Position numbers and translations under genes: made by a program. From assembly GCF_003018255.1 (NCBI RefSeq), contig NZ_CP027440.1: 64,000 nucleotides of DNA, one strand, 5' to 3'. Positions within the stretch are counted from its first letter, which is position 1. Each line of letters opens with the position of its first letter. This DNA is from Escherichia coli (GTDB lineage Bacteria > Pseudomonadota > Gammaproteobacteria > Enterobacterales > Enterobacteriaceae). The notes under the pieces were generated by a model. That model had not been told where the DNA came from, did not search any database, and saw nothing but the letters and a program-made list of their open reading frames with translations. Below, one piece after another: positions 28,181 to 35,531 of this stretch.

Positions 28181-29320
28181 ATGTCAGAATTTTTGCCTTT
28201 TTCGCGACCAGCAATGGGCGTGGAGGAACTCGCTGCAGTTAAAGAGGTTCTCGAATCCGGTTGGATCACAACCGGTCCGAAGAATCAGGCGCTTGAACAA
28301 GCCTTTTGCCAGTTGACGGGAAATCAGCATGCCATCGCGGTCAGTTCAGCCACCGCCGGAATGCATATCACGCTAATGGCGTTGGAAATTGGCAAGGGCG
28401 ATGAAGTGATTACGCCTTCCCTGACCTGGGTTTCAACCCTCAATATGATTTCCTTGTTGGATGCAACGCCGGTAATGGTGGATGTCGACCACGATACGCT
28501 GATGGTCACGCCTGAAGCGATCGAGTCAGCCATTACGCCACGCACTAAAGCCATCATTCCGGTGCATTATGCCGGTGCGCCAGCAGATATTGACGCCATT
28601 CGCGCCATTGGCGAACGTTACGGCATCGCAGTTATCGAAGATGCTGCCCATGCCGTCGGTACGTATTACAAAGGCCGACATATTGGCGCAAAAGGTACCG
28701 CTATTTTTTCGTTTCACGCCATCAAAAATATTACCTGTGCGGAAGGTGGCCTGATTGTTACAGATAATGAAAACCTTGCCCGCCAGCTACGGATGCTAAA
28801 ATTTCACGGTCTGGGTGTCGATGCCTATGACAGACAAACCTGGGGCCGTGCACCGCAAGCTGAAGTCTTAACGCCGGGCTATAAGTATAATCTGACCGAT
28901 ATTAACGCCGCGATTGCCCTGACCCAGTTAGCCAAATTAGAGCACCTCAACACCCGTCGGCGCGAAATTGCTCTGCAATATCAACAAGCACTGGCAGCTC
29001 TCCCTTTTCAGCCATTAAGCCTTCCCGCCTGGCCGCACGTTCACGCCTGGCATCTGTTTATTATTCGTGTCGATGAACAACGTTGTGGTATCAGTCGCGA
29101 TGCGTTGATGGAAGCGTTAAAAGAAAGAGGCATTGGTACCGGGTTACATTTCCGCGCCGCTCACACACAAAAATATTATCGCGAGCGTTTTCCCACGCTG
29201 TCGTTACCGAATACCGAATGGAATAGCGAACGCATCTGTTCGTTGCCGCTGTTCCCGGATATGACCACCGCCGATGCCGACCGCGTCATCACAGCCCTTC
29301 AGCAACTCGCAGGACAATAA
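28181..29320 (+). CDS. arnB: UDP-4-amino-4-deoxy-L-arabinose--oxoglutarate aminotransferase (PLP)
   Basis: ORF 28148-29320; start [23 protein letters not shown] at 28181 preferred (28148 is an alternative); DegT/ArnB aminotransferase family. Confidence 0.93.
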
Positions 29321-29323
29321 GCC

Positions 29324-30292
29324 ATGTTTGAAATCCACCCTGTTAAGAAAGTCTCGGTGGTTATTCCCGTTTATAACGAGCAGGAAAGCTTACCGGAATT
29401 AATCAGGCGCACCACAAAAGCCTGTGAATCACTGGGGAAAGAGTATGAGATCCTGCTGATTGATGACGGCAGTAGCGATAATTCCGCGCATATGCTGGTC
29501 GAAGCCTCACAAGCGGAGAACAGCCATATTGTGTCTATTTTGCTTAACCGCAATTACGGGCAACATTCAGCGATTATGGCGGGATTCAGTCACGTTACTG
29601 GCGACTTAATTATTACCCTTGATGCCGATCTCCAGAATCCGCCAGAGGAGATCCCCCGCCTGGTGGCAAAAGCCGATGAAGGCTACGACGTGGTAGGAAC
29701 TGTGCGTCAGAACCGCCAGGACAGCTGGTTTCGTAAAACGGCATCGAAGATGATTAACCGGCTTATTCAGCGCACCACCGGCAAAGCGATGGGTGACTAC
29801 GGTTGTATGCTGCGCGCCTATCGCCGTCATATTGTCGATGCGATGTTGCACTGCCATGAACGCAGTACCTTTATCCCGATTCTGGCGAATATCTTCGCCC
29901 GCCGTGCCATTGAAATTCCAGTGCATCATGCCGAGCGTGAGTTTGGTGAATCCAAATACAGCTTTATGCGCCTGATTAATTTGATGTACGACCTGGTGAC
30001 CTGCCTTACCACAACGCCGCTACGTATGCTGAGTCTGCTCGGCAGCATTATTGCGATTGGAGGTTTTAGCATTGCTGTGCTGCTGGTGATTTTACGCCTG
30101 ACCTTCGGACCCCAATGGGCGGCAGAAGGCGTCTTTATGCTATTTGCCGTGCTGTTTACTTTTATTGGCGCTCAGTTTATCGGCATGGGATTACTCGGTG
30201 AATATATCGGCAGGATCTACACCGATGTCCGCGCCCGCCCCCGCTATTTTGTTCAGCAAGTTATCCGTCCATCCAGCAAGGAAAATGAATAA
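29324..30292 (+). CDS. arnC: undecaprenyl-phosphate 4-deoxy-4-formamido-L-arabinose transferase (GT2)
   Basis: 322-aa ORF; GT2 motifs ([14 protein letters not shown]) and C-terminal TM helices. Confidence 0.95.
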
Positions 30293-33161: not shown

Positions 33162-34813
33162 TGAAATCGGTACGTTACCTTATCGGCCTCTTCGCGTTTA
33201 TTGCCTGCTATTACCTGTTACCGATCAGCACGCGTCTGCTATGGCAACCCGATGAAACGCGTTATGCGGAAATCAGTCGAGAAATGCTGGCATCCGGCGA
33301 CTGGATTGTGCCCCATCTGTTAGGGCTACGTTATTTCGAAAAACCCATTGCCGGATACTGGATTAACAGCATTGGGCAATGGCTATTTGGCGCGAATAAC
33401 TTTGGTGTGCGGGCAGGCGTTATCTTTGCGACCCTGTTAACTGCCGCGCTGGTGACCTGGTTTACTCTGCGCTTATGGCGCGATAAACGTCTGGCTCTAC
33501 TCGCCGCAGTGATTTATCTCTCATTGTTTATTGTCTATGCCATTGGCACTTATGCCGTGCTCGATCCGTTTATTGCCTTCTGGCTGGTGGCGGGAATGTG
33601 CAGCTTCTGGCTGGCAATGCAGGCACAGACGTGGAAAGGCAAAAGCGCGGGATTTTTACTGCTGGGAATCACTTGCGGCATGGGGGTGATGACCAAAGGT
33701 TTTCTCGCCCTTGCCGTGCCGGTATTAAGCGTGCTTCCATGGGTTGCAACGCAAAAACGCTGGAAAGATCTCTTTATTTACGGCTGGCTGGCGGTCATCA
33801 GTTGCGTACTGACGGTTCTCCCCTGGGGACTGGCGATAGCGCAGCGGGAGCCTGACTTCTGGCACTATTTTTTCTGGGTTGAGCATATTCAACGCTTTGC
33901 AATGGATGATGCCCAACATAGAGCTCCGTTCTGGTACTACTTGCCGGTCATCATTGCCGGTAGCCTGCCGTGGCTGGGATTACTCCCCGGAGCACTGTAC
34001 GCAGGCTGGAAAAACCGCAAGCATTCCGCAACCGTCTATTTGTTGAGCTGGACGATAATGCCGCTGTTGTTTTTCTCCGTCGCCAAAGGCAAATTGCCCA
34101 CCTATATTCTTTCTTGCTTTGCTCCTCTGGCAATGCTGATGGCGCATTACGCTTTGCTGGCAGCAAAAAATAATCCTCTGGCGTTGCGGATTAATGGCTG
34201 GATTAACATCGCTTTTGGCGTCACTGGCATTATTGCCACATTTGTGGTCTCCCCCTGGGGAGCAATGAACACGCCGGTGTGGCAAACCTTCGAGAGCTAT
34301 AAAGTCTTTTGTGCCTGGTCGATTTTTTCGCTATGGGCATTTTTCGGCTGGTACACCTTAACAAACGTCGAAAAGACCTGGTCTTTTGCCGCGCTTTGCC
34401 CGCTGGGGCTGGCGTTGCTGGTAGGATTTTCAATTCCTGACAGAGTCATGGAAGGAAAACATCCGCAATTTTTTGTCGAGATGACACAAGAATCACTTCA
34501 GCCAAGCCGCTATATTCTTACTGATAGCGTCGGTGTTGCCGCAGGTCTGGCATGGAGCCTGCAACGCGATGACATCATCATGTATCGCCAGACAGGTGAG
34601 TTGAAATACGGCCTTAATTATCCGGATGCGAAAGGGAGATTTGTCAGCGGTGATGAGTTCGCAAACTGGCTTAATCAACATCGTCAGGAGGGGATTATTA
34701 CACTCGTGCTTTCGGTTGACCGCAATGAAGATATCAACAGTCTCGCCATTCCGCCCGCAGATGCCATCGATCGTCAGGAGCGTCTGGTGCTGATTCAGTA
34801 TCGTCCCAAATGA
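33161..34813 (+). CDS. arnT: undecaprenyl-phosphate-alpha-L-Ara4N:lipid A arabinosyltransferase (GT83)
   Basis: 550-aa polytopic membrane protein. Confidence 0.95.
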
Positions 34814-35145
34814 TCTGGCTAACATTAGTCTTTGCCAGCTTGCTTAGCGTTGCCGGGCAGTTGTGTCAGAAACAGGCAACCTGCTTTGTGGCGATAAACA
34901 AACGGCGCAAACATATCGTGCTGTGGCTGGGACTGGCGCTGGCTTGTCTTGGTCTTGCCATGGTGCTCTGGCTGCTGGTCTTGCAGAACGTACCGGTAGG
35001 CATTGCCTACCCGATGTTAAGTCTGAATTTTGTCTGGGTGACGCTGGCTGCAGTAAAACTGTGGCACGAACCGGTATCGCCGCGTCACTGGTGTGGGGTG
35101 GCGTTCATTATTGGTGGCATTGTGATCCTCGGGAGTACCGTGTAA
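34810..35145 (+). CDS. arnE: undecaprenyl-phosphate-Ara4N flippase subunit ArnE
   Basis: 111-aa 4-TM SMR-like protein; overlaps the arnT stop. Confidence 0.85.
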
Positions 35146-35531
35146 TGGGCCTGATGTGGGGATTATTCAGCGTCATTATCGCCTCCGCTGCGCAATTAAG
35201 CCTGGGTTTTGCGGCGAGTCATCTGCCGCCGATGACGCACTTATGGGATTTTATCGCGGCGTTGTTAGCTTTTGGCCTGGATGCCCGGATACTGTTACTC
35301 GGGCTGCTGGGTTATCTGCTTTCCGTTTTTTGTTGGTATAAAACACTACATAAACTTGCACTAAGCAAAGCCTATGCCTTGCTCAGTATGAGTTATGTGC
35401 TGGTATGGATTGCTTCAATGGTACTTCCCGGCTGGGAAGGGACTTTTTCGCTGAAAGCACTACTGGGAGTAGCCTGTATTATGAGCGGGTTGATGCTGAT
35501 TTTCCTGCCCACAACAAAACAACGTTACTGA
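35145..35531 (+). CDS. arnF: undecaprenyl-phosphate-Ara4N flippase subunit ArnF
   Basis: Internal start [22 protein letters not shown] at 35145 within ORF 34863-35531, overlapping the arnE stop; 128-aa 4-TM protein. Confidence 0.8.

Follow-up and report, generated by a model that had tools for sequence, protein, structure and literature searches.

Translational coupling has been shown genetically for trpE-trpD and trpB-trpA, gene pairs of a biosynthetic operon in which the stop codon of one gene and the start codon of the next overlap as TGATG. The same stop/start geometry occurs in the arnBCADTEF operon, which directs the addition of 4-amino-4-deoxy-L-arabinose (Ara4N) to lipid A and provides polymyxin resistance; here, coupling is read from anatomy and conservation. 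Overlapping gene pairs of Escherichia coli that were studied in experiments proved strictly coupled (PMC6728339), and coupling drops steeply as the intergenic distance grows (PMC6728339; PMC10666635). The coupled overlapping pairs described by Huber et al. (2019, 2023) are co-directional and show distances of -4 or -1 nt, the two commonest configurations in E. coli, as do the overlapping pairs of arn, although in the former coupling was measured while the arn pairs are known here by their sequence. In overlapping pairs the Shine-Dalgarno motif of the downstream gene typically, but not obligatorily, lies inside the upstream coding sequence, an arrangement seen for arnA and arnF; arnE, which has no such motif, differs from the typical downstream gene (PMC6728339). 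ArnE and ArnF are subunits of a heteromeric flippase, a class enriched among tight pairs (PMC10666635), whereas most arn products are pathway enzymes.

The window (the whole stretch of 64,000 nucleotides that was analyzed) carries at 28181-35531, on the plus strand, an ordinary seven-gene E. coli arnBCADTEF (pmrHFIJKLM) operon that has been annotated before. Its closest described relative is the operon of E. coli K-12 (b2253-b2258 plus b4544, NC_000913.3), which shows the same gene order, the same junctions from arnC to arnF and the same flanking genes, ais and pmrD, and encodes Arn proteins 98-100% identical to those of the window. The K-12 annotation makes arnB 18 nt longer (385 aa, corresponding to position 28163 of the window), while 28181 is the start that PGAP gives in other strains and that the comparative evidence favors. 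The features of the locus are the following:

28067..28082, plus strand: PmrA(BasR)-box-like direct repeat TTAAG-N6-TTAAT, found by pattern search upstream of arnB
28181..29320, plus strand: arnB (UDP-Ara4N aminotransferase), 379 aa, assigned by NCBIfam NF008658, PGAP and the comparison of 80 loci
29324..30292, plus strand: arnC, with its ATG 3 nt past the arnB stop (TAAgccATG), assigned by profile match and annotation
30292..32274, plus strand: arnA, A30292 being common to its ATG and to the arnC stop TAA (-1)
32271..33161, plus strand: arnD, with its ATG overlapping the arnA stop as ATGA (-4)
33161..34813, plus strand: arnT, A33161 being common to its ATG and to the arnD stop TGA (TGATG, -1)
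34810..35145, plus strand: arnE, forming ATGA (-4) with the arnT stop, profile positions 1-111 of 111 matched
35145..35531, plus strand: arnF, 128 aa, A35145 being common to its ATG and to the arnE stop TAA (-1)
35525..35791, minus strand: pmrD, convergent with arnF, annotation transferred from the matching E. coli genome

The genes follow one another in the order ArnB, ArnC, ArnA, ArnD, ArnT, ArnE and ArnF, all on the same strand, and each product exceeds the cut-off of its NCBIfam equivalog (bits/cut-off, in that order: 735/631, 673/529, 1258/777, 521/382, 815/567, 214/92 and 137/99) with a match that reaches the N-terminus. The gene coordinates are those that PGAP assigns in the nearest E. 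coli genome and, except for the arnB start, also those of K-12. The window belongs to a strain other than K-12, with strain 2017.09.02CC as its best match (99.4% identical); the region is present in 5422 of 5426 genomes, and the layout is the same in the E. coli genomes of RefSeq. Operon, gene boundaries and -4/-1 overlaps are thus already known, textbook features.

Upstream of arnB lies the divergent gene ais, so that no co-directional gene precedes arnB. The repeat at 28067-28082, about 100 nt 5' of the arnB ATG, is the likely control site of the operon promoter, a putative PmrA box as judged by the consensus of pmrH/arnB promoters; its pattern matches twice in the window versus 0.4 matches expected by chance. 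The promoter scan gave no convincing match to the sigma-70 consensus at arnB, an expected result for a promoter that needs an activator; the terminator scan found none between arnF and pmrD, and the Rfam scan detected no known RNA family in 26500-37500. Since all junctions measure +3 nt or less, there is no room for terminators or promoters between the genes, and we infer that the operon is co-transcribed as a single mRNA from the putative PmrA-box promoter. At the distal end, the 3' end of pmrD overlaps that of arnF by 7 nt (TTACTGA).

Checked base by base, the junctions from arnB/arnC to arnE/arnF measure +3, -1, -4, -1, -4 and -1 nt. The arnC stop TAA (30290-30292) and the arnA ATG (30292) form TAATG, as do the arnE stop TAA (35143-35145) and the arnF ATG (35145); the ATG of arnD (32271) with the arnA stop TGA (32272-32274), and that of arnE (34810) with the arnT stop TGA (34811-34813), form ATGA; and the arnD stop TGA (33159-33161) with the arnT ATG (33161) forms TGATG. 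All five overlaps claimed in the preliminary description are therefore present at the positions given there, and its typing of them as ATGA or TAATG holds for four junctions, arnD/arnT being of the TGATG type. Its statement that coupling is tight throughout goes too far: five of six junctions overlap, arnB and arnC are spaced (stop at 29318-29320, 3-nt spacer, ATG at 29324), and no more than 57% of species retain the overlap at arnD/arnT. No overlap had been claimed for arnB/arnC.

Within the window, 19% of all stop trinucleotides have an ATG at -4 or -1 by chance, which gives a probability of about 0.001 for at least five of six junctions. Genome-wide, 24% of the unidirectional gene pairs of E. 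coli lie at -8 to +6 nt (PMC10666635). All six arn junctions fall in this range, with a probability of about 2e-4 on that baseline and of about 4e-3 if a within-operon rate near 40% is assumed. The operon is the tight extreme of a very common pattern.

The junctions were compared with those of 80 other species, mostly Enterobacterales, of which 78-80 were usable per junction. A -1 or -4 overlap was found in 75 of 78 species at arnC/arnA (96%), 67 of 80 at arnA/arnD (84%), 74 of 78 at arnT/arnE (95%) and 76 of 78 at arnE/arnF (97%), whereas arnD/arnT was the least conserved junction (45 of 79). At arnB/arnC most species have a spacer of +1 to +3. The share of species with a distance of -8 to +10 nt ranges from 84 to 100% among the junctions (78-80 species). 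The arn pairs thus match the co-directional arrangement at about -8 to +10 nt that characterizes coupled pairs (PMC10666635), and their architecture is kept in orthologous operons. This conservation supports the functional importance of the junctions.

The signals that may recruit ribosomes differ along the operon. For arnC, arnD and arnT the motifs are weak (dG -4.0, -3.3 and -3.8, respectively), arnA and arnF show better ones (-5.4 and -6.9) and at arnE the motif is absent (+0.6). The clear Shine-Dalgarno motifs are:

28168..28174, plus strand: GGAAGGA of arnB, 6 nt 5' of ATG 28181, dG -5.7 kcal/mol
30278-30282, plus strand: AAGGA of arnA, within the upstream coding sequence
35131..35135, plus strand: GGGAG of arnF, in the last arnE codons, dG -6.9, in the top 2.4% of operon positions

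The arnF motif is conserved (median dG -7.4 in 79 species), and so is its lack at arnE (median dG -0.7 in 79 species).

By analogy with the coupled pairs described above, we infer coupling in arn itself, and it is quite probable that the tight packing goes together with a large dependence of the downstream cistrons on translation of the preceding one. Ribosomes would load de novo at the arnB ATG through GGAAGGA, and each later cistron would then be translated largely in dependence on its predecessor, with a ribosome that ends at the upstream stop either sitting on the next start or keeping the initiation region open. The dependence would be strongest for arnE, which lacks a Shine-Dalgarno motif, followed by arnD and arnT with their weak motifs, while AAGGA of arnA and GGGAG of arnF might retain a ribosome after termination or bring in fresh 30S subunits. 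The literature and the supplementary tables of N-terminomics and riboproteogenomics studies yielded no expression, ribosome-profiling, N-terminal or coupling data for arn. When the junctions were folded (-60 to +39), RNA structure did not exceed that of shuffled controls (z from -1.5 to +1.5); coupling by unmasking of structure therefore receives no support, though it is not excluded. A stoichiometric rationale is clear only for ArnE/ArnF, since ArnB, ArnC, ArnA, ArnD and ArnT are not known to be subunits of one complex.

The starts on which this reading depends could have been mis-assigned, with arnB beginning at GTG 28148 or ATG 28163 and arnF at GTG 34863 or ATG 35154, in which case both the overlap at arnE/arnF and the coordinates given for arnB would be artefacts of annotation. 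We consider this very improbable. For arnC, arnA, arnD, arnT and arnE the junctional ATG is the earliest possible start of the ORF. For arnB three in-frame candidates occur:

28148, plus strand: GTG at 28148..28150 (390 aa)
28163, plus strand: ATG at 28163..28165 (385 aa, MAEGKAM...), the start chosen for the K-12 reference and for the crystal constructs of Salmonella ArnB
28181, plus strand: ATG (379 aa, MSEFLPF...)

The choice between 28181 and 28148 presented in the preliminary description is supported in favor of 28181, but the description overlooked ATG 28163, which is the real rival. In addition to its use in K-12 and Salmonella, this codon is preceded by a passable purine-rich region (dG -5.2). 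Nonetheless, its occurrence is restricted to Escherichia, Salmonella and two loci of Citrobacter, the codons of the extension vary non-synonymously within E. coli, and a natural E. coli strain with an IS1 inserted 9 nt upstream can use only the short arnB start; ATG 28163 is probably not the main start. The equivalent of Met 28181, in turn, is the universal arnB start in the 80 loci, in most genera in-frame stops occur within six codons 5' of it, its AAGGA motif is conserved across genera, and positions 1-378 of 379 of NF008658 begin exactly at this residue. These observations support ATG 28181 as the arnB start. GTG 28148 was rejected, as it lacks a Shine-Dalgarno motif (dG +1.3) and occurs in E. 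coli and E. whittamii only. Contrary to the earlier proposal, the arnB start does not hinge on a stop/start overlap: because ais is divergent, arnB comes first in the operon and is initiated de novo. For arnF, the NCBIfam profile begins three residues inward, at the Met of 35154, which would agree with a later start, yet it excludes only the long form. ATG 35154 (+9) is confined to Escherichia, with codon 4 encoding Phe, Leu or Ile in the other species, and none of the GTGs further 5' (34863, the long form, 35061 and 35091) is conserved. The start proposed at 35145 is supported by cross-species homology, independently of the overlap argument on which it had been made to rest.

With these starts in place, the overlaps might still be a by-product of genome compaction. 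Loss of stop codons and short deletions would bring genes together, with ATGA and TAATG as the cheapest outcomes, and each cistron would be initiated by free 30S subunits through its own Shine-Dalgarno motif, whether or not the preceding gene is translated. The usable motifs of arnB, arnA and arnF agree with this proposal, as do the frequency of an overlapping ATG at random stop triplets of the window (19%), the loss of the arnD/arnT overlap in 43% of species at no obvious cost and the conclusion of Saito et al. (2020; PMC7538156) that coupling in E. coli does not rest mainly on reinitiation by non-recycled ribosomes. It accounts poorly, however, for arnE, which in about 70% of species has no Shine-Dalgarno motif (dG > -2) and still keeps the overlap in 95%, or for the strict coupling of the E. 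coli overlapping pairs that were tested (PMC6728339). Moreover, the junctions have changed time and again between -1 and -4 among species without losing the overlap, which suggests purifying selection rather than drift and points to selection on tight arn junctions. We regard the by-product explanation as improbable, and dependence of the downstream cistrons on preceding translation as the better reading.

The arnT/arnE junction would show this dependence in its most extreme form. Its ATGA persists despite very different C-terminal contexts of ArnT, and the lack of a Shine-Dalgarno motif together with the nearly constant overlap with the arnT stop suggests reinitiation. There is a hint that loss of the overlap goes with a stronger motif at arnE (median dG -2.9 in the four non-overlapping cases vs -0.7); the cross-species comparison of dG revealed no such compensation at arnD or arnT. 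A tentative extension, which we hold to be rather unlikely, is that arnE is an obligate reinitiation cistron: ArnE synthesis would be confined to ribosomes fresh from completing the membrane protein ArnT, on membrane-anchored mRNA, and GGGAG would then boost or retain ribosomes for ArnF. If so, synthesis of the ArnE/ArnF flippase would be tied in amount and location to ArnT, the transferase that uses the flippase product, and arnE would allow the disputed reinitiation in E. coli to be tested cleanly in a natural setting.

ArnB of the K-12 reference, and with it that of the Salmonella crystal constructs, probably includes six extra residues at its N-terminus; the comparative data do not back this extension as the ancestral start, and PGAP already uses the shorter one. 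The arnT/arnE junction, strongly conserved and devoid of a Shine-Dalgarno motif, is a handy natural substrate for the study of termination-reinitiation, a process on which published studies disagree.

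Seven consecutive open reading frames occupy 28181-35531 (plus strand) of the window. Each product passes the curated cut-off of its NCBIfam equivalog model, with a match of nearly full length; in order they are ArnB, ArnC, ArnA, ArnD, ArnT, ArnE and ArnF. An 8-kb query recovered the region in 5422 of 5426 complete Escherichia coli genomes, the top match being strain 2017.09.02CC (99.4% identical) and most genomes lying at 95-99%. The operon is flanked by ais (upstream, divergent) and pmrD (downstream, convergent), a layout shared with K-12 MG1655 except that arnB is 18 nt longer there. 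Since profile matches, E. coli-wide presence, annotation and K-12 layout agree, the region is the known arnBCADTEF (pmrHFIJKLM) operon, an ordinary feature that is already annotated.

Genes (PGAP annotation of the closest genome, transferred to window coordinates) and Shine-Dalgarno dG in kcal/mol (duplex energy with the 16S 3' end over -20 to -3; window value, then median of 79-81 species)
arnB, 28181-29320, plus strand; -5.7, median -5.5
arnC, 29324-30292, plus strand; -4.0, median -4.3
arnA, 30292-32274, plus strand; -5.4, median -5.9
arnD, 32271-33161, plus strand; -3.3, median -3.5
arnT, 33161-34813, plus strand; -3.8, median -3.7
arnE, 34810-35145, plus strand; +0.6, median -0.7
arnF, 35145-35531, plus strand; -6.9, median -7.4

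The preliminary description had proposed tight translational coupling throughout the operon by stop/start overlaps of the ATGA or TAATG type. The five overlaps were confirmed by direct reading of the bases, and the types hold for four junctions, arnD/arnT being TGATG; the interpretation itself is partly supported. In ORF analysis the overlapping ATG is the first possible start of arnC, arnA, arnD, arnT and arnE, so none of these has a longer form. An ATG falls by chance at -4 or -1 of 19% of the stop triplets across the window, and under this sequence-level null the probability of at least five overlaps in six junctions is about 0.001. Among unidirectional E. coli gene pairs, 707 of 2,987 (24%) lie at -8 to +6 nt, -4 and -1 being the commonest configurations (Huber et al., 2023; PMC10666635); against this baseline the arn operon is an unusually uniform case of a very common layout and no oddity.

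Junctions in the window (bases read; spacer or shared nucleotides) and -1 or -4 overlaps retained in other-species loci
arnB/arnC, TAAgccATG, +3; spacing mostly +1 to +3
arnC/arnA, TAATG, -1; 75 of 78
arnA/arnD, ATGA, -4; 67 of 80
arnD/arnT, TGATG, -1; 45 of 79
arnT/arnE, ATGA, -4; 74 of 78
arnE/arnF, TAATG, -1; 76 of 78

These 80 loci, fetched with an ArnD alignment, are mostly from Enterobacterales, from Escherichia whittamii through Proteus and Morganella, a few being MAGs labelled Burkholderiales or Pleomorphomonas. Genes were placed by tblastn, stops by in-frame extension, and starts as the start codon closest to where E. coli residue 1 aligned. The E. coli pattern, with overlaps at all five junctions, recurs in 32 of the 77 fully scorable loci. 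The overlap persists while its form shifts among lineages: for example, Escherichia has -1 at both arnC/arnA and arnE/arnF, where Citrobacter has -4 at the former and Enterobacter, Pantoea and Proteus have -4 (ATGA or GTGA) at the latter. Such retention is more consistent with selection for tight junctions than with drift.

The start of arnB had been tied to these overlaps, with 28181 set against GTG 28148; it is unrelated to them, as arnB is the first gene and its neighbour is divergent, and a third in-frame candidate, ATG 28163, had been overlooked. The latter (385 aa) is the start in K-12 NC_000913.3 (NP_416756.6) and, at the equivalent ATG, of the Salmonella crystal constructs 1MDO and 4OCA, whereas PGAP gives a 379-aa ArnB from 28181 in other E. 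coli genomes. Comparative data favour 28181: an aligned ATG occurs in essentially all 80 loci, preceded by a conserved AAGGA-type Shine-Dalgarno motif and, in most genera, by in-frame stops within six codons, and the NCBIfam profile begins at this Met. The ATG at -18 occurs in Escherichia and Salmonella but elsewhere in just two Citrobacter loci. The Shine-Dalgarno motif itself (GCG GAA GGA) encodes the residues 'AEG' of the putative extension, whose codons differ non-synonymously within E. coli (MAEGKA versus MTDGKK or MTDGKT). In one natural strain, E. coli MB06232 (L083; NZ_CM129885.1, 2288-3010), IS1A lies 9 nt before the ATG equivalent to 28181 and leaves only the short start. Use of both starts in E. 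coli and Salmonella is possible, since the upstream dG of 28163 is -5.2, versus -5.7 for 28181.

The IS1A strain, a seawater isolate, also lacks nudI, ais, the native arnB promoter and the putative PmrA box; its arn expression would rely on read-through or an IS-borne promoter. In E. coli MS15052 and Z0117EC0036 (L084, L085), ATGACGGATGGAAAAA(A/C)AATG replaces ATGGCGGAAGGAAAAGCAATG upstream of arnB. This variant, found in a subset of E. coli, weakens GGAAGGA to GGATGGA, and arnB translation efficiency may therefore differ among lineages. About 100 nt upstream of arnB, the direct repeat TTAAG-N6-TTAAT (TTAAGgttaagTTAAT, 28067-28082) resembles the PmrA box expected for the promoter. A -10-like hexamer, TAAAAT, follows about 10 nt downstream; a generic sigma-70 scan called no promoter there, and no Rfam family matched within 26500-37500.

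The arnF start proposed at 35145 is supported, with an equivalent in nearly all loci. Its frame is open upstream to GTG 34863, a 282-nt stretch (34863-35144) that crosses most of arnE in another frame and yields a spurious 222-aa ORF; this GTG is not conserved (E. albertii, like many other species, has its upstream limit at -75 nt), and ATG 35154 (+9) occurs only in Escherichia. The stops of arnF (35529-35531, plus strand) and pmrD (35525-35527, minus strand) interleave as TTACTGA, a 7-nt convergent overlap (35525-35531). A terminator scan found no terminator-like hairpin between the two genes, and their transcripts must overlap antisense at the 3' ends.

Translational coupling in arn is suggested by sequence comparison. 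On the best reading, initiation would occur de novo at arnB on a polycistronic mRNA, and at each overlapping junction translation would be handed on to the next cistron, obligatorily for arnE and, for arnA and arnF, with the help of internal Shine-Dalgarno motifs. Experiments on other E. coli pairs showed overlapping genes to be strictly coupled, with coupling falling steeply as distance grows (PMC6728339; PMC10666635); Saito et al. (2020; PMC7538156) contend that E. coli makes no major use of reinitiation by unrecycled ribosomes. Literature searches found no expression or start-mapping data for arn genes. Upstream ribosomes might instead unmask the next start, but folding of the junction regions gave nothing that exceeded shuffled controls in stability, and unmasking therefore has no specific support.

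At operon-internal positions the background dG has a mean of -2.2 and a 5th percentile of -5.9. The strong arnF motif, GGGAG (35131-35135), lies inside the last arnE codons. No Shine-Dalgarno motif precedes arnE across the order (window 34787-34813; orthologous loci L003-L082, 79 species), and the overlap with arnT (ATGA or -1) is retained even with a wholly different ArnT C-terminus; purine-rich stretches precede arnE in a few overlap-losing loci (n = 4 only), e.g., AAGGTG in Morganella. The arnT/arnE junction, conserved yet devoid of a Shine-Dalgarno motif, is a useful addition to the corrections made here, and makes arnE a candidate obligate reinitiation cistron.
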